A DNA stretch of 64,000 bases from Candidatus Poribacteria bacterium (GCA_022825825.1 JAJDWA010000037.1:34-64033), one strand, 5' to 3'. Numbered from the stretch's first letter, positions 9,512-50,000 are shown. Made by a program: numbers and translations. The notes: a model not told the origin generated them from the letters alone.

Positions 9512-9523
9512 AATCCATTATCT

Positions 9524-9624: not shown

Positions 9625-9675
9625 ACTATAGTTTGATATGTTATTAATCAAACTATCTATCTTTGGAGATACCTC

Positions 9676-12711: not shown

Positions 12712-12783
12712 TATCCTTCCTTGGGCGGTACTGAACGCCACCCTTCCGACCTCTATCCTATCTCCCATTCAATTCCTAACATC

Positions 12784-12811
12784 TTGACAAACCCTCCCCA
12801 TTTGGTAAAAT
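12784..12811 (+). promoter_or_regulatory. Sigma-70-type promoter upstream of paralogue 4
   Basis: TTGACA, 16 nt, TAAAAT. This duplicates the 2985-3012 block. Confidence 0.55.
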
Positions 12812-12858
12812 AGTATTTCACTGTTTCCAACCATTCAATTTGTAAATATGCAGAATTA

Positions 12859-12886
12859 TGCACCAGTTTTACTCCTAAGTCGCGTC
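12859..12886 (+). promoter_or_regulatory. ECF-type promoter, paralogue 4
   Basis: TGCACC, 18 nt, CGTC, then ACTATAAAG. Confidence 0.6.
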
Positions 12887-12911
12887 ACTATAAAGCGATC
12901 GGAGGTGATCC

Positions 12912-15900
12912 ATGAAAAACGATGATGTTCAACTTATTCATCGCATTCTTGATGGTGATGATACCGCTTTCACCGAACTTGTGGAAAAATATCAAAAGTC
13001 TGTCCATGCGCTTGCGTGGCGAAAGATTGGAGATTTCCATATCGCAGAAGAGATTACGCAAGATACTTTCCTGAAAGCGTATCAAAAATTAGGCACATTA
13101 AAGAAGCCTCAGCGTTTTGCCAGCTGGCTTTATGTGATAGCCTCACGTCGCTGCGTTGCTTGGGCGCGTAAAAAGCGTGTGTGGACGCAGCCACTTGAAG
13201 AGACCAGCAGCCTGCAGGTAGAAAAATCGACTTACTCACAATATGTCATTGAAGAAAATGAACGGACAGCAGCAGAAGCACAACGCGAAGTCGTCAAGAA
13301 ATTGCTTGCCAAGCTCCCAGAGAGTGAACGCACGGTCATTACGTTACACTATTTCGGCGATATGTCCAGTGCAGAGATTGGCGCGTTTTTAGGTGTCTCG
13401 GCAAATACGATTCGGAGTCGTCTCCGCCGAGCACAGCACCGTTTACAAAAGGAGGAAACAATGATTAGAGAAGCACTCGACCATTTCCAAATTTCACCGA
13501 ACTTAACCGATAACATCATGCGAGAAGTTGCCCGCCTGAAACCTACTGCACCTTCTGGCAGCAAACCTTTGATGCCGTGGGTAGCTGCTGCATCAAGTGC
13601 TATTTTGATTATATTGATGCTTGGTATAGGCAGCCAACGCTTAGTGCGGTTTCAGAAACCGTATAGTTTGGATGCAAAGGCTGAGACAACAGTTGAACTC
13701 GTTGATGCGTCTGTTGTGCTAAATCTTGAGGCAAAACCAAATGTCCAAGATCGACTTGGGAATCCAAATATAGTTGGTAAAAGTAATAACGGTCAGAAAC
13801 CTGATGAGGTTTTATTGGCTGCATCGCAGACAGAAGGCGAAGACAAGGTATCCGTTCCTAAACAGCAGTGGACTCAAACTGGAGCCATCAAGGGAAGTTT
13901 TGTAGACAGTTTACTTGCAACATCTGAGAGTGAACTATACGTTTATGCAAATGGACACTTATACAAATTGCCAACCGATGGAACAGGATGGCAACACGTC
14001 AACGACTTCAGCTCACTAATTGATATTTGGCATGTTAATAGACCACTTATGGCGGAGTGGAACAATACCCTCTATATTGTGTTAATTAATAAACTATATG
14101 CTTCAAACGATGATGGCAAGACATGGAATGTAGTTCACTCATGGCGAGAAGATAAGTACTGGTCTCACCGAGAATTGTTCCTGACTGAAAAGACATTTTA
14201 TCTCACTTTTAATAATGGGATTATGGGTTCGGAGGATCAAGGCAAGACGTGGAAGGATATCAGCGATGAATTCCCCAATATTCCTTACTTTTTTGTAACA
14301 ATACAAGACACAGTATTTGCTGTAATAGGTTCTGGTCTCTATCGTAGAAACGGAGACAACTGGCAACGTTTAGAATTACCAGGGCCAGAAAAACTGAGCA
14401 TCGTTTCAGTTGCAGGCACTAAAGATCGTCTGTATGTGATAGGATTTCTTGCTCATGATGGGCTTATTCCTGATCTTGATATAATATCAAAGGCACAAAA
14501 ACGTACTTGGTGGATATTCCGTTCAACTGACCTTGGAAATTCGTGGAATGATATAACGCCAACAAACGCTTGGTCTCTAAAGGGATTCCCACCTGATAAG
14601 ATTGTTGCTGCTGGTGAAACACTCTTAGTGATGGAACGAGGTATGGTGCGCTCTACCGATGGTGGAGATACATGGATGCCATCACAATTACCTGGTACTT
14701 CCCCCTCAATACAATTTTCTGTTTCTGATAATGTGGCATTAAACGAACATATTTTTTATATAAATAGTTGGGAAGACGGTCTTACTCGCTCTATTGATGG
14801 TGGTAAAACGTGGGAAGGAGTGAACATCACTCCAGATCAGGAAAAGGATGCAGTATTTAATCTCATCGTTGATAAAGGAAGCAATGAAGGGCAAAACACA
14901 ACGCCTACTCTTTACGCGCGAGTCTACACAAGAGAAGCAACAGAAATTGTTAAAACGATGGACGCAGGAAAATCTTGGCAAGTTGTTCAAGTAGAAATAC
15001 CTCTCACGGACCCTTACAGAGTTCCACCATCTAAGATAGATCAAATTGTTAAGTCTGGTGATATTCTTTATGCAAAAGGTGGAGGCGATCATACCAACAG
15101 AAAGTTGCGTCTATATCGTATATCTGCAGATGGCAGTATGTTAGATCCTATTCAAGGTATGCCGACCTTTGACTCAACGCATCTATTTCACCTATTGCAT
15201 TTAGGAGCTGCTTCCAGAGGATCAGATAAGTCCTACACAGAAAAGCTGCAGAAAAGTTCTGCTGGGGCAACACAGTTCTTTAAGCAGTTAGCTCAAATGA
15301 AGCAGCAACAAGCAGAGATATTCTACAAATTCGGATTACAAGGTGCATTTGCTGTTAGTGATGACACATATTATATGGAATATAATTTTAAGCTTTTTCG
15401 ATGGGAACCCGGTGATACTGAATGGTACGATACAGGACTTGAAGAAACCTTCGAATTAACTTCGGACATAGCGAGGAGAAAACTCAAACTTGCGGCATCA
15501 GGCGACACCGTCTACGTTGGGAAACGGGATGGACATCTCGTTGTATCATTTGATAGAGGGAATAATTGGATTGATCTCACACCAGGGCTGCCATTTCCTA
15601 TCAAAACTTTCAGAGAGATTCTGGTAGCTGAGTCCACCGTTTATGTAGCAACGGACATAGGTATTATTACGTCAGATGATGGAAGAAGTTGGCATACTAT
15701 CGCCGATGCAGATGGAACTAATCTCATTATGGAGCATTTAGCTGCTGATGGCACAACGGTTTATGGTGTTACCAAAAACACAGGTATTTATCGCTTGGAA
15801 AATGATATTTGGGCACAAGTTGTTTCAGAGATTCCTGAAAGCGTAACTTCTCTTGCTGTTGATGGGAATACCCTATACGTAGGCACACAAAACCGTGGTA

Positions 15901-15926
15901 TGCTTTATTTCACTCTTGATGAATGA
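12912..15926 (+). CDS. ECF sigma - TM - BNR/Asp-box propeller fusion (paralogue 4)
   Basis: Same architecture, with eight Asp boxes. The RBS GGAGG lies 7 nt upstream of the ATG. Confidence 0.88.
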   Translation: MKNDDVQLIHRILDGDDTAFTELVEKYQKSVHALAWRKIGDFHIAEEITQDTFLKAYQKLGTLKKPQRFASWLYVIASRRCVAWARKKRVWTQPLEETSSLQVEKSTYSQYVIEENERTAAEAQREVVKKLLAKLPESERTVITLHYFGDMSSAEIGAFLGVSANTIRSRLRRAQHRLQKEETMIREALDHFQISPNLTDNIMREVARLKPTAPSGSKPLMPWVAAASSAILIILMLGIGSQRLVRFQKPYSLDAKAETTVELVDASVVLNLEAKPNVQDRLGNPNIVGKSNNGQKPDEVLLAASQTEGEDKVSVPKQQWTQTGAIKGSFVDSLLATSESELYVYANGHLYKLPTDGTGWQHVNDFSSLIDIWHVNRPLMAEWNNTLYIVLINKLYASNDDGKTWNVVHSWREDKYWSHRELFLTEKTFYLTFNNGIMGSEDQGKTWKDISDEFPNIPYFFVTIQDTVFAVIGSGLYRRNGDNWQRLELPGPEKLSIVSVAGTKDRLYVIGFLAHDGLIPDLDIISKAQKRTWWIFRSTDLGNSWNDITPTNAWSLKGFPPDKIVAAGETLLVMERGMVRSTDGGDTWMPSQLPGTSPSIQFSVSDNVALNEHIFYINSWEDGLTRSIDGGKTWEGVNITPDQEKDAVFNLIVDKGSNEGQNTTPTLYARVYTREATEIVKTMDAGKSWQVVQVEIPLTDPYRVPPSKIDQIVKSGDILYAKGGGDHTNRKLRLYRISADGSMLDPIQGMPTFDSTHLFHLLHLGAASRGSDKSYTEKLQKSSAGATQFFKQLAQMKQQQAEIFYKFGLQGAFAVSDDTYYMEYNFKLFRWEPGDTEWYDTGLEETFELTSDIARRKLKLAASGDTVYVGKRDGHLVVSFDRGNNWIDLTPGLPFPIKTFREILVAESTVYVATDIGIITSDDGRSWHTIADADGTNLIMEHLAADGTTVYGVTKNTGIYRLENDIWAQVVSEIPESVTSLAVDGNTLYVGTQNRGMLYFTLDE

Positions 15927-15972
15927 TGTATTATTTCTGGGCGGTGCTGGTGCCTATTCCTACCTCATCCAA

Positions 15973-23895: not shown

Positions 23896-26550
23896 TTAAA
23901 ACGCATTTGCCACAATAACTAAATCTTGGATATTTACAACACCATCACCATTGAGATCGGGTTCTGCTTCGCCAAAGGCATTCGCGACAGCAACTAAATC
24001 TAAGATATTCACAATGCCATCGTCATTGACATCCGCATCGGACCGAAATTCGGTGAGATTTAATCCAGCGAGTGGACTAAAATCGGTAGCTGGATTGTTC
24101 CTAATCCACAACCCTTCCAAATTTGTAAGTCCAGCAAGCGGGTTAAAGTCTTCAATCTGGTTATTTGAAAGACTTAACTCCCGAAGTGTCTTCAGTCCCG
24201 CAAGTGGACTAATATCCGAAACCTTACTATTTATCAGAGTGAGCTGCTCTAAGTTGATGAGATTCGCCAACGGAGTGATGTCAAGCGTTGGCGTTTCTGG
24301 AGAGAGATTTGAAAGATACAGATTTTCAAGAGTAGTCAAGTTAGTAAGCGGGCGCAGGTCTGTTATTGGATTCCCACTCAGGCGTAAAGCGGCGAGATTT
24401 GTTGCAAACTCTAAGCCTGTTATATTAACAATGCCTTTGTGGTCTGCTCTCAGATTACGCACAAGCCATAGCATCTTCTCTTTTGTCAAGTGTGCCGCTG
24501 CGGGCAGCCCGAGTGCCTCTCGAACTGCGGCGCGCAATGCCGCGTCAGGCATCCATTCTGATGCCAATTCTGGTGGGGTCTCTATCGCAAGGTCTAACAC
24601 TTTGACGGTACCATCAGCAGTTATACCGGGTTCCTGTTTCAGATACATCTCGCCATCTAAATCTGGGATGATGTGTGTTGTGCTTGTGATACCACTTTCT
24701 ACACCAATGGCTTGCGTTGAGAACTGAATTTTTTGTGCCTTCCCGCTGCGGTTGTAAACTGCCCAGCCGTTGGTGAACTCTCGAACAAAGAGTCCTTCAC
24801 AGTTGTCACAGAGTTGTCCCTTTTTTCCAATAGGTTGTCCAAGATCAGCATTCCAGAAATCATACCAGAAATTATGGGAGTCCATCCACTTGTTCCAACT
24901 ACCGGCTGGATAAGTTAAGCGAACGTAGCCATCAGAGTGCGTCAGCCCTCTTGTTGTAAACATACGCATTCGTCTTTGATTGTCCGGACTGTCCGGTGGT
25001 TGATCCGGCAAAAGGAATCCTTCGCCCCAGTTAACAGTTGGTTGTCGCAAGTGTTTTTCATTCCAGAGTAATGTCTCATCGAGCACTTGAAGCAGTTTAT
25101 ATGTGCCGCCAGCAGTTCCTTTATAGTCTTCACCCGGTTCCATCGCGGAACCATTGACGTATTCTGCATACTGAACAGGTTTATTTCGCCCCGCATTTAC
25201 AATGATTAGGAAGTCATCACGCACCTGCTCTCGGACTCCTCGTAAAATACGGTTGCGTGCTTCAATAATTAATTCATAAGCAAACCAGTCTCCGAATGAT
25301 GCATCACCACCAAACCCATCCAATAGAATACCATCAAAAATACCACATTCGGAAAACCCTACAATCCTTTCAATAAGCAAATCCTGTAAATCTGGATTTA
25401 AAAGGTTCATCATATACTCACCATTTGAATTTTGGACTATTCTACCTTCACTATCTCGAAGCCAAAAATCAGAATCAACTGGAAAAGCCCTGTTGTTTGG
25501 TGGTAGATGGTTATGAATACGTACTTCCCTAAAAAATAGCATATTGGGGTTACGTTGAAGTAGTTGTTGATGGATTGCTTTTGCCTCTTCAATATCGCCT
25601 GAAAGTTGAGTTCTTAAGCCAAATGGTTCTGTTTGTGATGTCTTCCAGGACAACCCCAAAGATGTACCATAATTAAAGTCATAGTTGGTAGATTCTTCGC
25701 CATCGGGATGTATTCCTACTATTGATGGAAAATTTCTATTTTTAATGCGTGATTCAACTGAATCACGCAGTGGAATGAGATCACACACCTCATCATAGTG
25801 GAACTCTATAAGATTTAAAGAGAGTAGTGGGCTTATATCTCTCGTCCAATTTTTCTGAATCCATAGCTTTTCGAGATTTGTCAATTCGGCAAGCAGACTA
25901 AAGTCCTCAATGTGATTATTTGCAATATGTAATTCCCGAAGTTTCTTGAGTCCCACCAGTGGTGTGATATCCGTAATCCCGTTCCCCGCCAGAGAGAGCA
26001 CCTCTAAGTTGATAAGATTCGTCAACGGACGCAGATCAAGATTTGTCGGATTGGCGGGAAAGTGCCAAAAATGTAGCTCCACGAGTTGTGTCAAATTTGC
26101 CAGAGGACGTAGGTCTGTTATAGGATTTCTACTCAGGTGCAATACTCTGAGCTTCGTCAGGCCCGCCAGCGGTGTGATATCGGAAATTCCATTCTCCACC
26201 AGAGAGAGTCTGTCTAAGTTTATTAGATTTGCCAATGGGCGCAGGTTTGTTATGGGATTCTTATCCAAATGTAATACTCTGAGTTTCGTCGCAAACTCTA
26301 ATCCAGCTATGTCGGTGATACCGCTATCCCGCACATTGAGATCCTTTAGCCGGGGCATCTTATCCTTCGTCAAGAGTTCGTCTGCCGGTAGTTTTAAAGC
26401 CTCGCGCACTGCTTGCCGCAAGTTTGGATCAGGCATCCATTCTTCAGCATCTTCTGCGTAGATAAGAGTGTTGTAGCCAAGTATGCCTATAACAGATACA
26501 AACAATATCCGAAACCATAACGATTTACAACATGTTTTTTTGATTTTCAT
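23896..26550 (-). CDS. Secreted LRR - central TIM-barrel-like (possible glycoside-hydrolase-like) - LRR - dockerin protein
   Basis: Signal peptide, then two homologous LRR blocks (LxLxxNxIxDIxPLxxLxxL). Each block is introduced by EWMPD..LR.AVREAL.LP. The C-terminus has tandem dockerin-type Ca-binding repeats DVNDDGIVNILDLVAVANAF and DLNGDGVVNIQDLVIVANAF. The central-domain assignment is weak. Confidence 0.75.
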   Translation of the reverse strand: MKIKKTCCKSLWFRILFVSVIGILGYNTLIYAEDAEEWMPDPNLRQAVREALKLPADELLTKDKMPRLKDLNVRDSGITDIAGLEFATKLRVLHLDKNPITNLRPLANLINLDRLSLVENGISDITPLAGLTKLRVLHLSRNPITDLRPLANLTQLVELHFWHFPANPTNLDLRPLTNLINLEVLSLAGNGITDITPLVGLKKLRELHIANNHIEDFSLLAELTNLEKLWIQKNWTRDISPLLSLNLIEFHYDEVCDLIPLRDSVESRIKNRNFPSIVGIHPDGEESTNYDFNYGTSLGLSWKTSQTEPFGLRTQLSGDIEEAKAIHQQLLQRNPNMLFFREVRIHNHLPPNNRAFPVDSDFWLRDSEGRIVQNSNGEYMMNLLNPDLQDLLIERIVGFSECGIFDGILLDGFGGDASFGDWFAYELIIEARNRILRGVREQVRDDFLIIVNAGRNKPVQYAEYVNGSAMEPGEDYKGTAGGTYKLLQVLDETLLWNEKHLRQPTVNWGEGFLLPDQPPDSPDNQRRMRMFTTRGLTHSDGYVRLTYPAGSWNKWMDSHNFWYDFWNADLGQPIGKKGQLCDNCEGLFVREFTNGWAVYNRSGKAQKIQFSTQAIGVESGITSTTHIIPDLDGEMYLKQEPGITADGTVKVLDLAIETPPELASEWMPDAALRAAVREALGLPAAAHLTKEKMLWLVRNLRADHKGIVNITGLEFATNLAALRLSGNPITDLRPLTNLTTLENLYLSNLSPETPTLDITPLANLINLEQLTLINSKVSDISPLAGLKTLRELSLSNNQIEDFNPLAGLTNLEGLWIRNNPATDFSPLAGLNLTEFRSDADVNDDGIVNILDLVAVANAFGEAEPDLNGDGVVNIQDLVIVANAF

Positions 26551-26627: not shown

Positions 26628-27392
26628 TCAATCAATTGTAGCGAAAAACTTCAATAACCGCGCTAACACCGTGGGCAACTCCAGGCGTGGAATATAGCAG
26701 TCTACACTAATGTCTGGAGTACGTGAGTTTAGTTCGCGATTCTTTTCAGGGAGAAGTTGTTCTTCAGGTGCATGTAAAGCTGGTTGTGGTTGAAATCGAG
26801 ATGCATTTTCTAATCGTGATGCACACTCTGCTATAACGATTTCACCAACAGGCAGATATGGTGCAAACTGTCCAATACTCGTTTCAGTCAAAATAGTTAA
26901 ATGTGGCAGTGATTTTTCCGCTAATTCCTCTAACTGTAGAAACAGTGGCACAATTTCAGAAAAGGAAATTTGCGATTCAACCGGACTCGCCGTGAAAATA
27001 GAAAGCAGAGGAATTGATTCTTTCAACGCACGCCCAATTGCTTCAGAAAATACCTGCAAATGTTGCTGTAGAAGGGGAGAATCTGGGTGCAAAATAAACA
27101 AACTGACCGTATAGCCGGCAATATCCTCTTCAGTAGCAAGAATATCAATTGTAGACTCTGTAGGCTCACCTGAAAATCCATCAGCGGTGTCAGGAGCATT
27201 CTCATCCATAAGAAGCTTTAGGCGATTTTCAATAGATAAAGGAAATAATTCTTTACACTTTGGGCAGATAAAACCGTTTCGTTCTAATTCTCCTCGGAAA
27301 GACACCTCATTACAATACGTGCATTTGTGCCATAAACCGATACTTTCCTCTGCTATTTCGGCGTTTCGCGTAGTTTCCATATTTTGATCCAT
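26628..27392 (-). CDS. AccD-like zinc-ribbon protein with degenerate carboxyltransferase motifs
   Basis: GLWHKCTYCNEVSFRGELERNGFICPKCKELFPLSIENRLKLLMDE aligns with E. coli AccD [46 protein letters not shown]. The remainder is colinear, but the glycine-rich motifs GGSMG, SGGARMQE and TMGGV are replaced by DSPLL, ASPVESQ and SIGQF. Confidence 0.7.
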   Translation of the reverse strand: MDQNMETTRNAEIAEESIGLWHKCTYCNEVSFRGELERNGFICPKCKELFPLSIENRLKLLMDENAPDTADGFSGEPTESTIDILATEEDIAGYTVSLFILHPDSPLLQQHLQVFSEAIGRALKESIPLLSIFTASPVESQISFSEIVPLFLQLEELAEKSLPHLTILTETSIGQFAPYLPVGEIVIAECASRLENASRFQPQPALHAPEEQLLPEKNRELNSRTPDISVDCYIPRLELPTVLARLLKFFATID

Positions 27393-27451: not shown

Positions 27452-27796
27452 TTAAAGAAAACTTGCAATTGCCTCTGCTTCTGTATCATATCGGTCAAAT
27501 ATCGTTACAAGTTTAGCCATAATAATAAGACTTCTAATGTTTCCACCGATGTTGAGGAGAACCACTCTGCCATTATTGCGTCTGATAGATGCATAGGCAG
27601 CAACAATTACACCCAATCCAGAACTATCCATCATTTGGACACGTTCCATATTTAAAATCATAAATACTGGTTCACCACTGGCCTCTTGAATTTGGTTATC
27701 AATGATGTTTTTCAGTGCAATTGTATTAGGGCCAACAAGGTTACCCTCAATATCTAAAATAGTAACACTCCCTTTATGTCGTAGGTTGATTTGCAT
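27452..27796 (-). CDS. STAS-domain anti-sigma-factor antagonist (SpoIIAA/RsbV-like)
   Basis: Starts at MQINL, with the RBS GAAGGAG upstream. The conserved phosphorylatable-serine motif MDSSGLG is present. Confidence 0.85.
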   Translation of the reverse strand: MQINLRHKGSVTILDIEGNLVGPNTIALKNIIDNQIQEASGEPVFMILNMERVQMMDSSGLGVIVAAYASIRRNNGRVVLLNIGGNIRSLIIMAKLVTIFDRYDTEAEAIASFL

Positions 27797-27938
27797 AAAT
27801 ACTCCTTCTTTTAAAATTTTGCCTTCCTGAAAGCACAGATAAGCCAACTTTGTTAGAATATAAACATTCGTTAATGTCAAGGTACTCCTTTTGGATTAGT
27901 ATCTGTTAACGTACGTGACATTCTCCAGCTATCTGGAG

Positions 27939-28367
27939 CTACAAATTCGGGCTTTGCTTAAATTTAACCATCTTGACAATGGTGCCTTCAGCCTCGTAGC
28001 TCACTTCGTCCATGCACGCTTCCATCAGGAAAAGGCCGCGTCCACTGCTTTTCAGTAGATTTTCTGGTTCAAGTGGATTCGCAACATTTTCGCGCTGAAA
28101 CCCAGGCCCTTCATCAGTTACAACAATCGTGAGTTTCTCATCTTCAATAAGAAACTCAAATGTCGCCGTCTTATTAATATCTTCTTTATTGCCGTGTTTG
28201 ATTGCGTTTGTCCCTGCTTCAATGACAGCTAGGTTCACATGCTCCTGCGCTTCTTCATCAAAATTCATCTCTCTCAGAATATCACTGCAAACAGTGTCGA
28301 GTAGATAAATCAACTGCATTGTGCTTGGGAGAGAAAGGAAAATTCTCCATTGGGTTTTCTCGCCCAC
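27939..28367 (-). CDS. RsbW/SpoIIAB-like anti-sigma serine kinase (HATPase_c)
   Basis: N-box AVIEAGTNAIKHG, G1 box VTDEGPGF, G2 box SGRGLFLM. GTG start with a GGAG RBS. Confidence 0.85.
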   Translation of the reverse strand: MGEKTQWRIFLSLPSTMQLIYLLDTVCSDILREMNFDEEAQEHVNLAVIEAGTNAIKHGNKEDINKTATFEFLIEDEKLTIVVTDEGPGFQRENVANPLEPENLLKSSGRGLFLMEACMDEVSYEAEGTIVKMVKFKQSPNL

Positions 28368-28439
28368 GTTTTAGGCTCCTTCTTTGTGAATGCAAATGTC
28401 CGTGTTGTATATCATTCAAATAAATTTCCTGCAATGCAA

Positions 28440-29720
28440 CTAAGTTGAAGTTGCCTTCGCATCAGTGCGTTTAATTACAACAACGGCGCGGTCATCCTTG
28501 AGTTGTGTCGTTCCGCTAAATTCTTTCAATTCCGTTTGAAGAACATCACAAAGTGCTTCAGCGGATAGTGTTAGATTTTTTGAGAAGCAGTCAATCAAAC
28601 GTTCTTCACCATAGAAGTTATTTGGTGTTTGCCCCTCAGTTTCGGTTACCCCATCGGTATAAAGTAAAAGGACATCTCCTGGAGATAATAGACAGGTTTC
28701 TGACGAAAAAGTTGCGATATCAAACGCGCCTATTAGCATTCCACCAGTTTCAAGTAACTCCACTTGATGTTTACTTTTTTCGGTTTGTTTAGGGCCTTCT
28801 AAGCCTTTAATAAAATGAATTGGTGGACAGTGTCCTCCATTAGAATAAGTAAACCTTCCCGTGTCTATTTCTAATATACCGTATACCATTGTGGCAAATT
28901 GTTCAAGGTCTGTGTTATGAAAAAGTAAAGTATTAATACGTTTTAAAACCGTTGCGGGCAAATGCGCGTTTGGCATTTGCCCTGAATCCGCTTCATTACT
29001 TAATAGACGTGAAGCTGTCTGGATCATTACCATTAAAAGTGCAGCTGGAATTCCATGTCCTTTTACATCGCCTAACACGATGCCGAGACGTGTGTCGCTA
29101 AGTGGGATAAAATCATAAAAGTCACCAGAAACAGAGGTTGAACTTCGGAACATGGTTGCGAAGTCGAAACCGGTAAAGGTAGGCGGCTTCTCTGGAAGTA
29201 ACTTGAGTTGAATTTCGGCAGCTGCTTGGAGATGCGAACCGAGTTCAGCTACACCTGCCTCGCTGAAACTTTCTCCCATCGCATTGATCAATGGATTGAT
29301 GTATTTTACAGGGCGTGTTCGCCCTAAAACTGCGTTAATCCGAGCAGTCACCTCACGCAAATCAAAAGGTTTTGTAATATAGTCATCCCCACCAACTTCT
29401 AATCCGCGTAATTTGTCCACAGTTTGTGATTTCGCTGTCAACCATAGGACGGGAATTGCATTTGTTTCACTATCTGCTTTTAGTTTCTCAATTACTTGTA
29501 AGCCATCCATCTGCGGCATCATAACGTCAAGCAGAATCAGGTCCGGTTGGTCCGCTTTAGCAAGTTGGATCCCATTTATACCGTTATTGGCGGTGATGAC
29601 ATGGAATCCATCAGAAGCCAAACTCATTTCGAGTAGAGCCAGGATATCAGTATCATCATCAATTACCAAAATGGTTTCAGCTGTTTGTGCCGTTGGAGAC
29701 ACAAAAATTGTTTCGGACAT
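28440..29720 (-). CDS. Response-regulator receiver fused to a PP2C/SpoIIE phosphatase (RsbU-like)
   Basis: Receiver motifs ILVIDDD, DLILLDVMMPQMDG and TAKS. PP2C motifs SGDFYDF, GDVKGHGIPAAL and LLLYTDGVTE. Confidence 0.9.
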   Translation of the reverse strand: MSETIFVSPTAQTAETILVIDDDTDILALLEMSLASDGFHVITANNGINGIQLAKADQPDLILLDVMMPQMDGLQVIEKLKADSETNAIPVLWLTAKSQTVDKLRGLEVGGDDYITKPFDLREVTARINAVLGRTRPVKYINPLINAMGESFSEAGVAELGSHLQAAAEIQLKLLPEKPPTFTGFDFATMFRSSTSVSGDFYDFIPLSDTRLGIVLGDVKGHGIPAALLMVMIQTASRLLSNEADSGQMPNAHLPATVLKRINTLLFHNTDLEQFATMVYGILEIDTGRFTYSNGGHCPPIHFIKGLEGPKQTEKSKHQVELLETGGMLIGAFDIATFSSETCLLSPGDVLLLYTDGVTETEGQTPNNFYGEERLIDCFSKNLTLSAEALCDVLQTELKEFSGTTQLKDDRAVVVIKRTDAKATST

Positions 29721-29764
29721 ATCTTTAGCCTTAAGTTTTCAATTCAGAAATTTGGTTAATGAAA

Positions 29765-30421
29765 TTACAGCACGCCATCGCTGTTTTCCTTTCGCCTGAT
29801 CTCTATTGTTGGAAGGACGCCTTCTCCCGTAACGTGCCAAACAGGATCCTGAAGAAACAGTTGTCTTATACGATCAATGAAGACTGTGTCTTTCGAGGCA
29901 ATAGCCATCTCGAAGGCAGCTCGTCTTATGTAAGGGTCCTTGTGTTGACAGAATTGGTCAGCGATTTCTTTGGCGTCATTTGGATAAAGACGGGCCAAGC
30001 TGAGGAGTGCTCGCCGCTTGCAGTAGTCGTCTGGGTCTTGAAGCCCTTTTTTTAAGAGATTTTCCGCCTTTCGACCTGCACAGCTAAGAACATCATACAC
30101 TTGCCATCGCGTACTTGCGTATGCCGACTTTGTCAGTAAAAGCAATACGTCCCAACATCGATCTATGTGGGTTCTTGCATAATCAGCAAGATGTTCTCCT
30201 TCTTTCGAAATGGCCCAGCATTTGTCAATATACTGGATATCCTCTCGTTTTGGGGATTGTCGGGTCATTTCGTAAATAGCGGCTTCCATCAAAAAACCCC
30301 ACTTGGGATAATCTTCCTGCCAACCCTCATCGTTTTGGTCTGCCGTGATCGCCCACTCTTTCCAATCTCTATATTTTCTTTTTAGATCGTTTGCCATCAT
30401 ATCCTCTACTGCTGTGTCCAC
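29765..30421 (-). CDS. Hypothetical protein with HEAT-like repeats
   Basis: Helical repeats such as LKKGLQDPDDYCKRRALLSLARL and CQHKDPYIRRAAFEMAI. Sits between the histidine kinase and the RR-PP2C gene. Confidence 0.5.
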   Translation of the reverse strand: MDTAVEDMMANDLKRKYRDWKEWAITADQNDEGWQEDYPKWGFLMEAAIYEMTRQSPKREDIQYIDKCWAISKEGEHLADYARTHIDRCWDVLLLLTKSAYASTRWQVYDVLSCAGRKAENLLKKGLQDPDDYCKRRALLSLARLYPNDAKEIADQFCQHKDPYIRRAAFEMAIASKDTVFIDRIRQLFLQDPVWHVTGEGVLPTIEIRRKENSDGVL

Positions 30422-30472
30422 CTAATTTACACCCTCAAATAATCATAATTCGTCGGTGTAAAAATAAAGTCT

Positions 30473-32962
30473 CTATGATAAAAACGGAATCCAAAATTGG
30501 AAGTTGCAACCTTTATCATTTTCGCCTACATCTACCCAGATTTTCCCTTTATGTGCTTCAACGAATCCGCGTGCGATTGGAAGACCTAAGCCGGTACCGC
30601 CCTGTTCCCGAGTTTGAATATTACTAAGTTGTCGGAATTTGTCAAAGACATCTTCACGGTCTTGAGCAGGGATACCAGGGCCAGTGTCTATCACCTCAAC
30701 ATGAATGCCATCGTTTTCATCCCTAACACTATCTTCTTTTATAGGACAATCCTTACGGGACATTTTCACGTTTACTTCGCCGTTTGACGGCGTGAATTTG
30801 ATGGCATTTCCTATCAGATTTGTTAAAATTTGACCGAGATATTCCGCATCCCCGTTTAGATCGGGTAAATCAGGTTGAACGCTTAAATCCAATTTGATTG
30901 TCTTTTCGTCGGCTTGTGGTTTGAGTTCCTCAATCCGTTGCTGCGCAATCTCAGCGAGGTCCACTGGCTCAAGTTTCATTACAATCCGTCCCGCTTCAAT
31001 ACGTGAAATATCAAGCAGATCATTAATCATTGTGGCGAGCCGTTCCGACTGGCGATGTGCGCGGGTCAAACTCTGTTGTTGGACTTCGTTAATCGGTCCA
31101 GCTTTTCCATCCAGTATCAGTGAGATAAATCCGATGATTGAAGTCAACGGAGTTCTCAATTCATGGGAGACAAGTGCTACAAAATCAGATTTCATCTTAT
31201 CAATTTCATGTTCACGCGTTATATCATCAAAAACATAGACCATTCCCGCCATCTCGGTATTTTCATTAGAAGAACTATCAGTATCTGCGGTTGTGCTAAC
31301 CGAAGAAAATTGGCTTGTCACAACACGAAGAATACGATTTTCACCTTCTTGGTCTAAGTTGATTTCAACTGTTGTTCGCGTATCCTGTCCGTGTGTATTT
31401 GCCAAAACAGTCAAATTCGTGATACGTAGCAATTCGGTAAATCGATCAGGAAACTGTGATGTCTCATTAAAGTTAAGCAGATGCTTAGCAGCGGGGTTAA
31501 AGTAAAGGATTCGGTCGCGAACATCAACCACAATGAGTCCTTCACCGAGGCAATCAACAATAGTCGTCATCTGTTGTTCGGCACTAATGAGTTTTTCAAC
31601 AGCAATTTTTAAATTACGGTGCATATCGTTGAATTCTTGTGCCAACATCCCGACTTCATTCTTACTGTGGATTGAGATAAGTTCAGCTTCTTCATTTTGG
31701 TACCACTGCATATTTGCTATCTGTTTGCGGACTTGATCAGACTCTTCTTGGACAACATCTTTTGCTTCTTGGCCGATACGTTTTGCTACTTGTGCGAGCT
31801 GCATAACCGGCTGAGAGATACGTTTTGCCACCGCATAAGCGATCGGTATAACTATTACACATGATAGAATGGTAACCCACAAGACATACTCGTTCAGTTT
31901 CACAACCCCTGCGTAAGCTTCGGAGCTTGGATATGAAACAAAAACAATCCAGTTACTGAAATTTGGCTCGGTTTTCCACGATTTCCATCTTGCTGGTCGT
32001 GTACTCGCCCATCCATAAACACGAGATTCACCGAAACGATCTACTTCACCTGAGGCTTCATAGCCGTAGTATTTTCCCTCCTCCGCTCCCCTTTTCGCTT
32101 TTTTCGCTTCTATTATTGCTCTCATTGTAGCATTTTCCGTTGATATCACATCACCTATCTTGTACTTACTTTGTGGTGAAGCGGCAATTACTTTTCCAGA
32201 TTGAGTTGTCAGAATGGTATGTGCCTTTTGCATGTCTGGTAGCAATTCAACAACATTGGAAAGTTCCGGCACTAAAAGAACAAGTCTGAGTACACCGACA
32301 GCTATGTATCCAGTGTCAGAAGACGATCGCGGACTTTTCCCGCGAATCGGAAATGCCATTGAAAGAGTATACGCACTGTGCTCCTGATCATAGGTGACAT
32401 CCTCAATGTATCGAGAACCTTCACTGTTGTTGAAAGCTCTATCCCACCAAACTTGGTCATCAACCCGATACGGTAGATCCCTTCTCGGATCGAAATCTAA
32501 TTTTGAATTGTTTGAGCGGAGAACATACCCATCAGCATTTGTAATTGTAACCTCACTTCCATTTCTACGGATGCGTCTTCTGTTCCTGCTACCAGTATAA
32601 GTTTCCAACAACCGAATACTACCCCCTAAATTGCTCCACACTTCAAAAAAAACATTATAATTTCCTTTAGCATTGTTAGATTTTATAACTGGATCTCGAA
32701 TCTCTTTTTGAATATTCGGTATCTCCGCAAGGATTTTTCGCATCCTCTCTGAAATAGAGCGATCCGCTTCGTTGAGTTTTGCTTGTGCTAATAAAGCCAT
32801 ACCTTCACCAACGCTGCTTCTCAAAGCGTTTTCACCCAACCTTTTGATTGTCAGTGAAACAATTAATAACGGCGTAAGCGAAACAAGCAGAAACAGAAGA
32901 ACTTGTTGGCTGCGCAATCCCATCTTAAACCGAGTACGCATTGCAGGTTTTTTCTCTTTCAT
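30473..32962 (-). CDS. Sensor histidine kinase (TM - Cache-like ectodomain - TM - HAMP - PAS - HisKA - HATPase)
   Basis: Two TM segments flank a ~330-aa ectodomain. H-box FVALVSHELRTPLTSIIGF, N-box LIGNAIKFT, G-boxes DTGPGI and GTGLGLPIARG. Confidence 0.9.
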   Translation of the reverse strand: MKEKKPAMRTRFKMGLRSQQVLLFLLVSLTPLLIVSLTIKRLGENALRSSVGEGMALLAQAKLNEADRSISERMRKILAEIPNIQKEIRDPVIKSNNAKGNYNVFFEVWSNLGGSIRLLETYTGSRNRRRIRRNGSEVTITNADGYVLRSNNSKLDFDPRRDLPYRVDDQVWWDRAFNNSEGSRYIEDVTYDQEHSAYTLSMAFPIRGKSPRSSSDTGYIAVGVLRLVLLVPELSNVVELLPDMQKAHTILTTQSGKVIAASPQSKYKIGDVISTENATMRAIIEAKKAKRGAEEGKYYGYEASGEVDRFGESRVYGWASTRPARWKSWKTEPNFSNWIVFVSYPSSEAYAGVVKLNEYVLWVTILSCVIVIPIAYAVAKRISQPVMQLAQVAKRIGQEAKDVVQEESDQVRKQIANMQWYQNEEAELISIHSKNEVGMLAQEFNDMHRNLKIAVEKLISAEQQMTTIVDCLGEGLIVVDVRDRILYFNPAAKHLLNFNETSQFPDRFTELLRITNLTVLANTHGQDTRTTVEINLDQEGENRILRVVTSQFSSVSTTADTDSSSNENTEMAGMVYVFDDITREHEIDKMKSDFVALVSHELRTPLTSIIGFISLILDGKAGPINEVQQQSLTRAHRQSERLATMINDLLDISRIEAGRIVMKLEPVDLAEIAQQRIEELKPQADEKTIKLDLSVQPDLPDLNGDAEYLGQILTNLIGNAIKFTPSNGEVNVKMSRKDCPIKEDSVRDENDGIHVEVIDTGPGIPAQDREDVFDKFRQLSNIQTREQGGTGLGLPIARGFVEAHKGKIWVDVGENDKGCNFQFWIPFLS

Positions 32963-33045
32963 CGCTGCTCTCCTTTAAGATTCAGATTCTCCGTACCCGA
33001 TGGGAACTAATATGACATCAATCATTACTCTGTTGAATCCTCAAC

Positions 33046-33381
33046 TTACGAAAAAGCGTTGAGCGCGGCTTCCTTAGTTTCGTACACCTCTAAAATTGAC
33101 GTAAGACGCGTAACTTCTAATATACTACTAACAGTTTTTTGTGGATTTAGCAGCACCAATTTTCCCCCCGATCTTTGCAAAATTTGCATGGTGACAATAA
33201 TGACGCCAAGTGCAGTACTGTCAAGGAGTGGGACGTTCTTCAGATCAATAATCAGTTTGTTATTCCCATTTTGCAGCTGCTGTTCTATTTCTTTGCGGAA
33301 TTCTGTTACTGTATTGCCAATAATTTTCCCTTGCACGTGGACAACTGCCGTGTTTACAGCGTCCGTTGTAATCTCAAACAT
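33046..33381 (-). CDS. Second STAS-domain anti-sigma-factor antagonist
   Basis: Starts at MFEIT, with the RBS GAAGGAG upstream. The conserved motif is LDSTALG, with Ser-Thr at the phosphosite. Confidence 0.8.
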   Translation of the reverse strand: MFEITTDAVNTAVVHVQGKIIGNTVTEFRKEIEQQLQNGNNKLIIDLKNVPLLDSTALGVIIVTMQILQRSGGKLVLLNPQKTVSSILEVTRLTSILEVYETKEAALNAFS

Positions 33382-33473
33382 TACATAAAACTCCTTCACC
33401 GGCGAATTGCTATTGCCGTACATACTAAATCATCTGCGTGAGCGTGATGATAAAAGAAAAATTACCCGGTGTA

Positions 33474-34148
33474 TTAGATTTCACCATCAACACAACGCAC
33501 AACAATGTAGCAACGATTGAGTTGTGAAATTGGACTATCGTACACTCCTTCAATTTCTCCACCAAGTTTCTGTAGTGCTTTAATGCTTTGGCGAATCTCT
33601 ACATCTTTCTCACTGGATTTATATGCTACCCATCTACCTGTAGCATTGAGCAACGGTAAACAGTATTCGGCTGAGTCTACCAGTGAGGCAACGTAACGTG
33701 TCAAAACCCAGTCATAAGTCCTCATAAACGTATCGTTTTTAGCACAAATTTCAGCGCGCTTCGCTAAGACCTGAATTGGCGAATCTAAACCCAATTGAGA
33801 AACCAGATATTTGAGAAACGCCACCTTCTTATGGGAGGCTTCAACAAGTGTTAGTCGGATATTGGGGATATAGATTTTAAGTACAACCCCAGGAAATCCG
33901 GCACCGGTTCCAATGTCAATAACTGTTTGACCATCTTTAATAGCAAAATGTTCAAGAACACTGACAGAATCGAGGAAATGTTTATAAATTACTTCAGTGT
34001 TGTCGTTAAGTGCCGTTAGATTTATATGTGAATTCCACCGTTGCAATTCAGAGCGGTACACAGTCAACTGTTCAATCTGAATCGGGGTCAGTGGAAATCC
34101 GTTACTTTTGAACACTTCTTCAAGTTGATGACGGAATTGCGTTTCCAT
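33474..34148 (-). CDS. rsmG: 16S rRNA (guanine527-N7)-methyltransferase
   Basis: SAM motif DIGTGAGFPG, typical length, and position directly downstream of mnmG. Confidence 0.9.
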   Translation of the reverse strand: METQFRHQLEEVFKSNGFPLTPIQIEQLTVYRSELQRWNSHINLTALNDNTEVIYKHFLDSVSVLEHFAIKDGQTVIDIGTGAGFPGVVLKIYIPNIRLTLVEASHKKVAFLKYLVSQLGLDSPIQVLAKRAEICAKNDTFMRTYDWVLTRYVASLVDSAEYCLPLLNATGRWVAYKSSEKDVEIRQSIKALQKLGGEIEGVYDSPISQLNRCYIVVRCVDGEI

Positions 34149-34202: not shown

Positions 34203-36077
34203 CTACCGGTTTTGCTGATGCAGCATCACCATTAAAATAGAGATGTCTGCTGGCGAAACGCCAGGCAGACGCGAAGCTTGTCCTATAGAGGCAGGACGGA
34301 TTTTTTCAAGTTTCTCACGTGCTTCAGTTTTCAGTCCGCGCACATCCACATAGTTGAACGTATCCGGAATGCGAAGATTTTCTAATTTTTTGAATTGGTG
34401 AATCTGTCGTTGTTGCCGTTGGATATAGCCATCATATTTTATTTGGATTTCAACCTGTTCTTTGACCGCTGGTGGTAGTTCTTCGTCTGTCGGTGCCAAA
34501 CGTGCTATGTGTTCATAACTGAGTTCAGGACGTTTGAGCAGGTCTGCTAATAACGTGGGTTGTTTTAGTTCACCTGTTTGGACGATATCTGCCAATCGAT
34601 CAATAGTTGCTGCGTTTGGAATCAAACGTGTTTCGTCTAATCGCTTCAGTTCTGCTTTGATAAACGATGCTTTCTTTTGGAATCTGCTGTATGTGTTATC
34701 ATCAACAAGTCCAATCTGTCTACCGATTTCGGTGAGCCGTAGGTCTGCATTATCTTCCCGTAACGCCAACCTATATTCCGCACGTGATGTGAACATGCGA
34801 TAAGGTTCACGGATGTCCAACGTAACTAAATCGTCAATGAGAACAGCGATATATGCCTGGGATCTATCAAGGATAAGCGGTTCTTCGCCCTTCACTTTCA
34901 AAGCAGCGTTGATGCCTGCCATAAGTCCTTGTGCGGCGGCTTCCTCATAGCCGGTCGTGCCGTTGAGTTGTCCAGCAAAATAGAGTCCGGGAACCGTTTT
35001 TGTTTCAAGTGTCGGCTGGAGTTGCGTAGCAGGGGCAAAGTCGTATTCTACTGCGTATCCAAAGCGCATAATCTCAGCGTTCTCCAAGCCTTTGATACTA
35101 TGCACCATTTCTACCTGTACATCTTCAGGCAAACTCGCTGAGATGCCGTTAAGATAAATCTCATCGGTATCTAATCCTTCTGGCTCTACAAAGACCTGAT
35201 GTTCTGTTTTTTCAGCAAAACGGGTCACTTTATCTTCAATGGAGGGGCAATAGCGGGGACCGATACCAACAATACGCCCACTGTACATCGCGGAACGGTG
35301 AAGATTTTCTTTAATTACATCGTGTGTTTTTTCATTTGTATAGGTGAGGTAACACGGCACTTGTGGCTGTGTTATTTGCTCAGTGGAGAAGGAAAACGGT
35401 AGCGGGTCTTCATCACCTGGTTGAATCTCCATCCGGCTAATGTCAATGGAATGTGCATTGACGCGGGGTGGTGTGCCTGTTTTGAGTCTACCGATCTCAA
35501 AGCCAAGATTCAGAAAACTTTCAGAAAGTTTTTCAGCGGAGGATTCGCCTGCCCTGCCAGCACTGTAAGATACATCTCCGATATGGATGAGGCCTCTCAG
35601 AAAAGTGCCTGTGGTCAGAATGACAGTATCTCCATAATATGCTGTTTGTGTTTGGCTTTTAATTCCAATGCACCGCCCATTTTCGGTTAGCAATTCTTCT
35701 ACCAACACCTGTTTTATGTCGAGGTGTTCTTGTCCTTCCAGCACACGTTTCATTTCATCTTGATAAGCTTTTTTGTCTGCCTGGGCGCGACTGGATCGTA
35801 CCGCCGGTCCCTTTTTGGTGTTCAAGCGGCGGAATTGGATGCCGGTCTTGTCAATGTTTTTTGCCATCTCCCCGCCCAGCGCGTCTATCTCTTTGACGAG
35901 ATGTCCTTTGGCGAGACCGCCAATGGCGGGGTTACAAGACATCTTGGCAATCGTATCTAAATTGATAGTTACGATGAGCGTTTCGCAGCCCATGCGCGCA
36001 GCGGCGAGTGCGGCTTCACACCCTGCATGACCTGCTCCTACAACTATGACATCGTATTTTTTATGATATGTGTTCAT
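34203..36077 (-). CDS. mnmG: tRNA uridine 5-carboxymethylaminomethyl modification enzyme
   Basis: FAD motif YDVIVVGAGHAGCEAA and a full-length GidA match. The start was trimmed to MNTYHKKYDV at 36077. Confidence 0.93.
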   Translation of the reverse strand: MNTYHKKYDVIVVGAGHAGCEAALAAARMGCETLIVTINLDTIAKMSCNPAIGGLAKGHLVKEIDALGGEMAKNIDKTGIQFRRLNTKKGPAVRSSRAQADKKAYQDEMKRVLEGQEHLDIKQVLVEELLTENGRCIGIKSQTQTAYYGDTVILTTGTFLRGLIHIGDVSYSAGRAGESSAEKLSESFLNLGFEIGRLKTGTPPRVNAHSIDISRMEIQPGDEDPLPFSFSTEQITQPQVPCYLTYTNEKTHDVIKENLHRSAMYSGRIVGIGPRYCPSIEDKVTRFAEKTEHQVFVEPEGLDTDEIYLNGISASLPEDVQVEMVHSIKGLENAEIMRFGYAVEYDFAPATQLQPTLETKTVPGLYFAGQLNGTTGYEEAAAQGLMAGINAALKVKGEEPLILDRSQAYIAVLIDDLVTLDIREPYRMFTSRAEYRLALREDNADLRLTEIGRQIGLVDDNTYSRFQKKASFIKAELKRLDETRLIPNAATIDRLADIVQTGELKQPTLLADLLKRPELSYEHIARLAPTDEELPPAVKEQVEIQIKYDGYIQRQQRQIHQFKKLENLRIPDTFNYVDVRGLKTEAREKLEKIRPASIGQASRLPGVSPADISILMVMLHQQNR

Positions 36078-36105
36078 CTTATACTTCCCACTTCCATTGT
36101 AGGTT

Positions 36106-36345
36106 TTAGGGTGTCCATGCGTCCCATTCCTTATCGCCTTCAACATCCCACCAATCTGTTGATTCTATGCTTGTTGCAATAGATGCCAGTTTCTCTGTTT
36201 CAGTCAAAAGACCATTGTCAGGAGAACAATACGCACTCAACACACCTACAAGGACATTCTCTAATTTGACCCCTTGCGTTTTGGCAATTTGGTTAGCACG
36301 TCGGTACACGGCATCGGGAATATTGAGTGTGACTTGATGTTCCAT
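36106..36345 (-). CDS. Small hypothetical protein, possibly a ribbon-helix-helix fold
   Basis: 79-aa ORF with the RBS GAAAGG. The N-terminal VTLNIPDAVYRRANQIAK resembles an RHH beta-strand plus helix. No partner toxin gene is adjacent. Confidence 0.45.
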   Translation of the reverse strand: MEHQVTLNIPDAVYRRANQIAKTQGVKLENVLVGVLSAYCSPDNGLLTETEKLASIATSIESTDWWDVEGDKEWDAWTP

Positions 36346-47029: not shown

Positions 47030-50000
47030 TTATGCTGTAAGAGCATTAAATGCACCTGAGGCGATAAGATTTTCAATGACTTCCTCATTCATCTCTGTTG
47101 AATCAAAACGATCACGGAAATCTTGAATCGATGTGAATAAACCGTCCTGATTTCTTTTCGCAAGAAGCAAATCTATTACTTCATCACTCACGCCTTTGAG
47201 AGCAACAAAGCCGAAACGAATATCGTTGCCATCTACGATGAAGTGCTTTTCACTCACGTTGATATCAAGCGGTAACAGATTAATTTCTACATCCAAAAAT
47301 TCAGCGAGTCTCACACATTCAAATTGGTAACGCTTGATCTTTTCCTTATCTGCTGACTCTCCAGTCATCAACGCCGCCATAAATTCATGCGGATAATGTG
47401 TTTTAAGATATGCCATCCTGTATGCCAACATAGAATAAGTAACCGAGTGTGATTTGTTAAAAGCATATCTGCCAAACTGTTGAAGCAGGTCAAATACCTC
47501 TTCTGCTTCTTTGGTGGCAATCCCCTTTTCAACCGCACCATTGATAAATTTTAGACGTTGTTCTTTGAGCACATCTACTTTCTTTTTTCCGATTGCAGCG
47601 CGGAGGATATCTGCTTCACCAACCGTGAACCCGGCAACATCGCACGCAATCTGCATCATCTGTTCCTGATAGATACAGACACCGTAAGTGTTTTTAAGGG
47701 CATCCTCAAACGACGCATGCAGATAAGTCACCGATTCTAATCCATTTTTTCGGTTGATAAACTGCTGCATCATACCGCTTTCTAACGGATATGGACGATA
47801 GAGCGCAGGAATTGCTGAAAAATCCTCAAAATTATCCGCTTTGAGCTGTGCAACAACCGTATACATTCCAGCAGAGGTTTCCAGTTGGAATAACCCAGCG
47901 ATCAACCCTCTACTGATGAGTGAATAAGTCTTTTTGTCCTCAAGTGGAATATCTTCAAGGGTAATCTCGCGACCACGGTTTTCCTGAATCATATTGAGAC
48001 AGTCAGCAACCTCTGAAAGACTTCGTACACCAAGCGTATCAAATTTAATGAGGCCGACATCTTCAACCGTTTTTGCTTCAAATTGCGTTGCGACTTGTCC
48101 ATGTCTATCCTTGAAAATTGGAGCGTAATTCGTAAGCGGTCCGTCCGAAATGATAATTGCAGATGCATGACAAGAAACATGCCGTTTCATACCTTCTACT
48201 GCTTTACTAATTTCAATTAACTCTCTATTTTCAGGAAGTTCAGCAAGTTTCTGAAATTCAGGCGCTTGTGCAAGAGCATCATCAAGCGTAATATCCGGCT
48301 GGCTTGGAATTAGTCTTGTCAAGGTATCTATCTTATCAAGAGGAATTTCAAGGGCGCGTCCAACATCTTTGATAGCAGTTTTTGCCCGCAACATAGTAAA
48401 GGTAGCAACTTTACCTACAGAATCATGACCGTATTTTCTCACAAGGTAATCAATCACATCGTCACGTGCATGATCGGCAAAATCGATATCAATATCTGGC
48501 GGATTCATGCTATCAAGATTTAAAAACCTTTCGAATAGGCATCCGTGATCCATCGGATTGAAATTGATCACACCGAGCGCATAAAGCACAAGGCTGCTTG
48601 CAGCAGAACCGCGAGCAGAAAGTAGATAGCCCTGTTGGTTTGCGTAGCCAACGTAATCCGCAACAATTAGGAAATAATTTGCGTATCCAGTTTGTTGGAT
48701 AACGTCCAGTTCATATTCCAATCGCTTATGGATTGGTTCGGAGAGATGTCCCCCATATTTTTCCTGCAAACTATTGTGACACTGTTCTCTTAGAAAACTG
48801 TCATGTGTATGTCCTTCGGGAATCTCAAAAATCGGCGTCACACTTTGGTCGTAGTCCAGTTTTAGATTACACCGATTGGCAATTTCAACTGTATTGATAA
48901 TCGCTTCGGGGGGATAATCCTTGAGTGCTTCACGCATTTCGTCAACATTTTTGAAATAGAATTGATTCTCAAATCGTATTCGTTTGGGGTCGTTGACGGT
49001 TTTCTTTGTCTGGATACAGAGAAGGATGTCGTGCATCCGATGATCGGATTTCCGTAGGTAGTGACAATCGTTTGTGCCGACAATAGGGAGATTGAATTCA
49101 TTTGCGAATTCCATCATCACCGGATATACCGCTAATTCCGCATCAGTGTAGTGGTTTTGAATTTCAACAAAGAGATTGTCTTCTCCCATGATGTCTCTCA
49201 ATTCTAACAAGTTTCGGACTGCTTCCTCTCTTTGGTTAGAACAAATTAGCTTCGGCACTATTCCATTAATGCACCCTGTCAGTGCTATTATGCCACCATG
49301 ATGTTCACGCAACATTTCCATGTTGATGCGTGGTTTTCTATGGAAACCTTGTGTGTATCCGAGTGATGTCAATTCTAAGAGATTATGATATCCTTCAGTG
49401 TTTTCCGCTAACAGTGTGAGATGAGAGGGTGAACATTGAGAATTACCGTCTGATTTTTCTTTTCCCGTTTCGACATATACCTCACATCCGACAATAGGGT
49501 TAACACCTGCTGCTTTAGCAGTATTGTAAAATTCCCATGCCCCGAACATGTTGCCGTGGTCTGTAAGCGCAACAGCAGGAGAACTGTTTTCAATTGCCCA
49601 TTGCACCATATCTGGAATTCGGCACGCACCATCCAGCAAACTGTACTCACTGTGATTGTGTAGATGAACAAATTCTGCACCGTTTGAAGTCGAAATAACA
49701 TTGCTTTGTACAGTAGGTATGTCACGCTCGGTGTCGGAAATAGTCCCACTCTGTCCACTCGATGAATCAATCCCGCTCGCAAGTAAAGTCACTAACACTT
49801 CATCGCTTAATTCCAACTCATCCTTGTAGACTAATCCGAAAATAGGCTGGGCATTCTTACATGTTTCGACAATTACTTTCATGGCTTGATCCAATTCGTG
49901 CATTGTGAAATTTGGTGGAGAAGCGATATTAACAATCATTATGGCGTCACCTGTAATACTGTTTTCTTCAAGTAAAGGCGAAGTAATTGCGTTTTCTGCA

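Follow-up and report, generated by a model that had tools for sequence, protein, structure and literature searches.

In a 64,000-nucleotide stretch of a Candidatus Poribacteria genome (GCA_022825825.1, JAJDWA010000037.1:34-64033; hereafter the window), a Pfam and open reading frame (ORF) scan delineates seven co-directional minus-strand ORFs between gidA-gidB and an LRR-dockerin gene. Judged by its predicted domains, this block is a working partner switch gated by a two-component system, with its parts and motifs intact, and its last gene encodes a degenerate homolog of the acetyl-CoA carboxylase (ACC) subunit AccD, which we call pseudo-AccD, pAccD. We favor the reading that pAccD is functionally linked to the switch as a candidate partner, at a probability of roughly 0.5, because its adjacency to the RsbW-like kinase and a STAS gene is independent of gene context. 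The window is contig C47 of an assembly of 5.1 Mb that is 84% complete; the bacterium is a sponge symbiont.

Pseudo-AccD and its adjacency to the switch genes

Beginning from the gidB side, the block contains the following genes (lengths in amino acids, aa):

33046-33423, minus strand: STAS2 (Pfam STAS, E=2.7e-20; NCBIfam ant_ant_sig, 75.3 bits, cut-off 53.45)
30473-32962, minus strand: sensor histidine kinase (HAMP; PAS_8, 21.2 bits; HisKA, E=5.8e-21; HATPase_c, E=8.7e-27)
29765-30421, minus strand: HEAT-repeat protein, between kinase and response regulator (HEAT_2, E=5.5e-8)
28440-29720, minus strand: receiver-PP2C response regulator, 426 aa (Response_reg, E=1.3e-27; SpoIIE, E=3.4e-47)
27939-28367, minus strand: RsbW/SpoIIAB-like GHKL serine kinase, 142 aa (HATPase_c_2, E=3.7e-27)
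27452-27880, minus strand: STAS1 (STAS, E=2.3e-17)
26628-27392, minus strand: pAccD, 254 aa (Zn_ribbon_ACC, E=2.7e-6, the sole Pfam match)

An earlier interpretation made from the DNA alone (the sequence-only reading) had given the same seven genes, order and strand, and Pfam searches of the window ORFs bear it out. Gaps between cassette genes measure 44-142 bp; a scan for consensus promoters and terminators found no signal beyond the level of shuffled sequence at which the operon might divide, and no convincing intergenic terminator. Pairwise ratios of nonsynonymous to synonymous substitution rates (dN/dS) of 0.04-0.23 for all genes indicate purifying selection, and the catalytic and phospho-acceptor motifs that were checked are all intact and invariant across 13-17 orthologs.

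pAccD is predicted to be a catalytically dead AccD homolog that keeps the carboxyltransferase beta fold and the zinc ribbon. Pfam finds no Carboxyl_trans (PF01039) match in it, and against TIGR00515 it scores 52.1 bits (cut-off 317.45) over model positions 10-71 only. It aligns over its full length with Escherichia coli AccD, with SGGARMQE replaced by ASPVESQ and MGGVSAS by IGQ.FAP; relative to the genuine AccD encoded elsewhere in the genome (C54:100653-101426), which has a Carboxyl_trans domain, all four glycine motifs (GG..G, SGGxRMQE, GG(A/V)(S/T)AS, GFAGP) are lost, as they also are in the AccD-like proteins of families f2 to f8. The zinc-ribbon cysteines C24, C27, C43 and C46 are invariant in 23 pAccD sequences. 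An AlphaFold2 model (pLDDT, the predicted local distance difference test, 73.6) has AccD chains as its top Foldseek matches (E=1.6e-11), and dN/dS for the gene lies at 0.12-0.19. A QPALHAPEEQ stretch, invariant in the pAccD of family f1 and disordered in the AlphaFold2 model, may be a docking motif, as we infer from this pattern. A pseudo-AccA was considered as a partner for pAccD; none occurs in the genome, which has one genuine AccA only.

Conservation of gene order in relatives, put forward with the sequence-only reading as a check on the module, is found at every one of 16 loci that represent four families of the order: gidA-gidB-STAS2-kinase-receiver-PP2C-RsbW-STAS1-AccD-like is kept throughout, except that gidA-gidB was not found upstream of the cassette in one genome (G052) and that STAS1 is missing from some loci (see below). 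Across the phylum the cassette occurs in three unrelated contexts. The order and family f6 share the arrangement gidB / STAS2-kinase-PP2C-RsbW-STAS1-pAccD / galK, ROK or c7. Families f7 and f8 have gidB-parA-parB-STAS-RsbW-pAccD, with ORFs that abut or overlap and a cassette without histidine kinase or PP2C; here pAccD takes the place of the sigma gene in the classical arrangement rsbV-rsbW-sigB. The gidB-parA-parB cluster classically lies near the replication origin, and in f7 (L075:8249-12195) the end of parB and the beginning of the STAS gene share 4 bp. Family f5 has minC-minD-receiver-PP2C-RsbW-STAS-pAccD followed by a malK-like gene. RsbW, one STAS gene and pAccD are thus constant across the three contexts; flanks, input genes and the number of STAS genes vary. 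When 185,579 species genomes were scanned with a profile, 80 RsbW loci were recovered, and pAccD stands behind the kinase in every one of the 33 orthologous Poribacteria cassettes with enough downstream DNA, the exceptions within Poribacteria being one orphan RsbW and one paralogous cluster. The nearest relatives of the kinase outside Poribacteria, 36-46% identical and mostly from Acidobacteriota, with others from Bacteroidota and Planctomycetota, either are paired with a STAS gene or stand alone, and no sigma or AccD-like gene lies within 5 kb of them. We regard the context-independent adjacency as the decisive observation: from gene order, pAccD would be strongly linked to the switch, and the proposal in the sequence-only reading that the AccD-like protein is a candidate partner is strengthened by it.

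Several observations weigh against pAccD as the partner. Within the order, the 18 kb from gidA to a gene for a 1250-aa protein are wholly co-directional and syntenic; genes unrelated to the switch (gidAB, galK, ROK and an NHL gene) are equally syntenic; and pAccD abuts or overlaps the downstream galK, ROK or small ORF as often, and as tightly, as it abuts STAS1. In-order synteny is therefore insufficient as proof that pAccD belongs to the switch, which is why the other families of the phylum were compared. Rates of evolution (partial Mantel tests, 29-32 taxa) show an r of ~0 between RsbW and pAccD; the histidine kinase and pAccD covary at +0.67 to +0.71, and the control gene c7 is also correlated with several genes. 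The orphan RsbW has no STAS or pAccD gene within 5 kb. It lies in one Poribacteria metagenome-assembled genome (L107:4866-5393), is 61% identical, carries an N-terminal extension and is surrounded by metabolic genes. The experimentally resolved partners of RsbW-type kinases without an adjoining sigma gene that we found in the literature are all sigma factors (PMC12329169, PMC4552016, PMC6482189). Finally, the genome under study contains two further switch modules with neither a sigma gene nor a pAccD gene, which bring its RsbW-like kinases to three:

Contig C23 (L048:1-6800), fed by a two-component system: STAS, RsbW / receiver-PP2C, PAS kinase, Usp, STAS, STAS
Contig C44 (L049:3893-6717): RsbW, STAS, GAF-PP2C

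This genome also has two copies of a gene for a 630-aa membrane protein, each accompanied by a convergent orphan STAS gene (C29:410-2658 and C57:48020-50288); the N-termini of the two copies are near-identical, one copy sits at a contig end, and the arrangement may be a repeated cassette.

Components of the switch

The histidine kinase is laid out as a first transmembrane segment (~residues 21-39), a periplasmic domain of about 311-320 aa, a second transmembrane segment (360-378), HAMP, PAS, HisKA and HATPase_c, with an H-box SHELRTP containing His600 and with N, G1 and G2 boxes; it has no receiver domain by Pfam and so is not of the hybrid type. The PAS_8 score is slightly below its 21.8-bit cut-off. 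Described in the sequence-only reading as a Cache-HAMP-PAS kinase, it stands as such for its HAMP, PAS and kinase domains; for Cache, its own periplasmic part has no Pfam match even at E<=10, and we accept the label because orthologs at least 50% identical over that part carry PF02743, dCache_1. The response regulator downstream has the receiver residues DDD, acceptor Asp65, T95 and K117 and the PP2C metal-binding motifs SGDFYD, GDVKGHG, YTDG and KDD, is 47-88% identical across the order, and is presumed to be the phosphatase of the phosphorylated STAS proteins.

RsbW is the top NCBIfam match of the serine kinase at 77 bits, under the cut-off of 145, and SpoIIAB is also among the best. Its N (EAGTNAIKHG), G1 (DEGPGF) and G2 (SGRG) boxes are invariant in 17 orthologs. 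It belongs to a Poribacteria-specific clade, with only 7 cluster representatives below 1e-30 among 1.84 billion; natural fusions, sought as a clue to its partner, amounted to a partial tandem duplication only. The partner-switching design named in the sequence-only reading, from kinase through receiver-PP2C to STAS and RsbW, is thereby complete by domains and motifs.

Ortholog alignment places the conserved start of STAS2 at M15 (33381, where the sequence-only reading had ended the block) and that of STAS1 at M29 (27796), for a STAS1 protein of 114 aa. The phosphosite motifs that had been noted, DSTALG and DSSGLG, are both present with invariant Asp-Ser: in STAS2 the serine that would be phosphorylated is Ser69 of the ORF, within LLDSTALG (17 orthologs), and in STAS1 the serine of MMDSSGLG is Ser58 counted from M29 (13 orthologs), a position that we take to match Ser58 of SpoIIAA. 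STAS2 is the sole STAS gene retained in every lineage of the order. STAS1 is missing from 4 of the 16 loci, as a pseudogene in G037 and by absence in family f4. Two antagonists per kinase are therefore common and not obligatory, and the statement that two antagonists serve one kinase holds for most of the order and fails where STAS1 has been lost or has decayed. The G037 remnant is stop-ridden (L039, reverse-complemented, ~8640-8970); in f4 the slot is empty or holds an ORF resembling a flavin adenine dinucleotide (FAD) oxidoreductase, intact in G039 and broken in G042 (L046, reverse-complemented, ~8200-9300).

The dephosphorylated STAS proteins might themselves be the output, acting on other targets as two channels, with RsbW no more than their kinase. 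An output of this kind has been proposed for SypA, HmpV, RbaV and BtrV, in a review of non-canonical STAS-only proteins (PMC8256260), and unphosphorylated HsbA binds FlgM (PMC6482189). STAS1 is unusually conserved, at 85-92% identity within the genus and a dN/dS of 0.04-0.10 that is below its neighbors, which would fit several binding surfaces, and the closest Acidobacteriota and Bacteroidota relatives of the kinase are bare RsbW-STAS pairs with no sigma gene. STAS1 is nevertheless dispensable in f4 and G037, and a STAS output is compatible with pAccD as the STAS target, so that it overlaps the pAccD reading and does not replace it. As an account of its own we consider it unlikely.

The HEAT-repeat protein had been named with the AccD-like protein as an obvious candidate target, a role that its distribution does not sustain. 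Its gene is under purifying selection (dN/dS 0.23-0.29) and is thus a real gene, and it lies between kinase and response regulator in this genome and five others of the genus (G026, G028, G035, G015, G034), as a target or adaptor of the switch might. It is nevertheless present in just 10 of the 37 genus genomes and absent from 27 and from every other family; the copies in G007, G033, G032 and G027 are at loci without switch genes; none was found in 16 cassette loci of four families; and the empty slot in G003 and G036 holds no remnant that we could find. We rejected it as a core component of the switch for its patchiness, its unrelated loci and its absence from other families. The HEAT protein is an accessory, strain-level passenger, and a part for it as target or adaptor is very improbable. 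The gene is 71-88% identical between genomes whose adjoining genes diverge more and is found at no fewer than two kinds of locus (L066:6470-7048, L067:6339-6914), which suggests that it moves between genomes or sites.

The genes that flank the block are:

34203-36146, co-directional with the block: gidA
33474-34148, co-directional with the block: gidB
23896-26550, minus strand: LRR-GHL15-LRR-dockerin gene, directly beyond pAccD

The last of these stands between pAccD and galK in this genome only, galK following pAccD directly in the genus relatives, a pattern which suggests that a gene for a eukaryote-like repeat protein was recently inserted into a conserved block.

Sigma factors and a distant sigma as output

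The operon neither contains nor adjoins a sigma gene; the closest match to region 4 is at 13335-13484 on the other strand. The genome-wide search extends what the sequence-only reading had said of the operon. Of the 61 region-4 matches in the genome, almost all are of the extracytoplasmic function (ECF) type, and three sigmas have region 3: RpoD-like proteins of 537 aa and 561 aa and a 330-aa protein. Each of the three has its highest score with an RpoD or RpoS model, and with the SigB/F/G model (TIGR02980) they reach ~125-147 bits, compared with a cut-off of 234; searched as a genome, the assembly gives that model 131 bits at best. Because the assembly is incomplete, the census was repeated in relatives: the same three region-3 sigmas are found in 37 of 37 genus genomes, ten of them single-contig, and not one of 81 phylum genomes passes the SigBFG cut-off. 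The absence of a SigB/SigF-type sigma therefore holds for the lineage and not for the operon alone. Two candidates for a hidden one were discarded. The small sigmas of deeper Poribacteria belong to the FliA/WhiG type and lack switch genes in the surrounding 5 kb, and a match to SigBFG region 3/4 on contig C70 comes from a fusion of an ECF sigma with part of RpoD and does not belong to group 3. The C70 ORF (L009:628-1614, minus strand, 328 aa) consists of a complete ECF sigma followed by a C-terminal fragment that closely resembles regions 1.2-2.4 of the RpoD of this genome and stops shortly past region 2. A related ECF sigma occurs at the end of contig C18. The ORF may be a genuine fusion or a product of misassembly. 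Within the window, region-4 matches also occur inside large open frames at 3400-15930 (plus strand) and 47030-51322 (minus strand). Frames of this kind are mostly ~850-1250 aa, with a few of 700-1440 aa; they include four in tandem in the window and an ECF-FtsZ-PolIII-like fusion.

A sigma output could be had without any group-3 sigma, because published modules without an adjoining sigma gene act on group 1 or 2 sigmas whose genes lie at other loci (PMC12329169, PMC4552016, PMC6482189). The switch might then control RpoD (contig C1) or one of the following, with pAccD as an unrelated neighbor or an accessory input:

Contig C29: RpoS/SigC-like sigma, 330 aa
Contig C40: second RpoD-like sigma, 561 aa

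Precedents are at hand in Synechocystis, where Slr1861/Ssr1600 controls the group-2 sigma SigC (PMC12329169), in Chlamydia, where RsbW binds sigma66 and there are two RsbV proteins (PMC4552016), and in CrsR and HsbR, which bind RpoS (PMC6482189). The conservation of exactly three such sigmas throughout the genus agrees with this, as do the three RsbW-like kinases of the genome, given which several switches may share these sigmas. Against it, STAS, RsbW and PP2C genes are near none of the three sigma genes, the cassette has no sigma gene within 5 kb in any of the ~60 loci examined, and the retention of pAccD behind RsbW and STAS throughout the phylum, in three contexts, is left unexplained. We hold a distant sigma to be possible and on the improbable side. 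It can coexist with a link between pAccD and the switch, pAccD serving as a metabolite-sensing input and a sigma as the output.

Proposed mechanism and known systems

The route from kinase to receiver-PP2C to phosphorylated STAS, opposed by RsbW, follows the scheme of RsbKY (PMC9912610) and a general review (PMC8256260). By analogy with the families involved, the dCache-HAMP-PAS kinase would sense an extracytoplasmic ligand and phosphorylate Asp65 of the receiver-PP2C protein, which would set phosphatase activity on the phosphorylated serines of both STAS proteins; the RsbW-like kinase would re-phosphorylate STAS2 and STAS1 with ATP and would bind unphosphorylated STAS in place of its other partner. 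Gene neighborhood points to pAccD as that other partner, or else as a partner of dephosphorylated STAS, in the role of output or of metabolite-sensing input. The targets of released pAccD could be the single AccA, the ACC complex or, by way of its zinc ribbon, nucleic acid; the zinc finger of E. coli AccD binds acc mRNA (PMC2831308). A more specific version, which we put forward tentatively and think doubtful, is that RsbW sequesters pAccD and that STAS dephosphorylation frees it to titrate AccA or to bind acc transcripts via the zinc ribbon, so coupling an extracellular cue sensed by dCache to fatty-acid synthesis.

Partner switching is textbook sigma control, and the list of modules with no adjoining sigma gene and no assigned output is growing. 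To that list the Poribacteria cassette would contribute a novel sort of candidate output, namely a conserved pseudoenzyme that descends from acetyl-CoA carboxylase and occurs phylum-wide in the usual sigma slot. If pAccD is the output, it would connect environmental sensing with lipid metabolism at the post-translational level and provide a bacterial example of a dead enzyme reused in signaling. If the target is a distant sigma, Poribacteria would join Synechocystis and Chlamydia in RsbW-type control of group 1/2 sigmas.

A close likeness is to RsbK-RsbY-RsbV-RsbW-SigB of Bacillus cereus, in which a histidine kinase feeds a receiver-PP2C protein that dephosphorylates the STAS antagonist of an RsbW-type kinase (PMC9912610, PMC4574943). 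RsbK, however, is a hybrid kinase with a receiver of its own and is methylated by RsbM, whereas the Poribacteria kinase is of the orthodox dCache-HAMP-PAS form; in addition, the Poribacteria block has no sigB gene, has two STAS proteins, and ends in pAccD. A 1999 paper on the icfG cluster of Synechocystis reportedly described an RsbW-like kinase, a PP2C protein and more than one STAS phosphoprotein with no adjoining sigma gene, much as in the Poribacteria cassette. Slr1861 belongs to this cluster, which is not known to encode a sigma. The icfG cluster/Slr1861-Ssr1600-SigC system is tied to carbon metabolism (PMC12329169). It differs from the Poribacteria block in that its target is the group-2 sigma SigC and in having neither two-component input nor an AccD-like gene.

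Poribacteria have been placed near the Planctomycetes-Verrucomicrobia-Chlamydiae (PVC) group. RsbU/RsbV1/RsbV2/RsbW of Chlamydia trachomatis resembles their switch in having two antagonists per kinase, no SigB-type sigma, and a start at an extracytoplasmic sensor (PMC4552016, PMC11619594), but its sensor is fused directly to the PP2C domain, its genes are scattered, and its RsbW binds sigma66. In CrsR-CrsA of Shewanella and HsbR-HsbA of Pseudomonas, too, a receiver controls a PP2C domain whose substrate is a STAS protein, and the output is something other than an adjoining group-3 sigma (PMC6482189); there, however, a single polypeptide combines receiver, PP2C and kinase and takes its input from an Hpt relay, and the partners are RpoS and FlgM. 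Compared with E. coli AccD (2F9Y/8UZ2; TIGR00515), pAccD has colinear homology, the fold and the Cys4 zinc ribbon in common, but it lacks the glycine-rich catalytic motifs (52 vs 317 bits) and its host genome has a genuine AccD elsewhere. Our literature search found no paper joining partner switching with acetyl-CoA carboxylase and none on this switch in Poribacteria. With several precedents, a two-component-fed switch with two antagonists and no sigma gene is ordinary by itself; what sets this one apart from the described systems that we found is the phylum-wide presence of a pseudo-AccD in the sigma slot.

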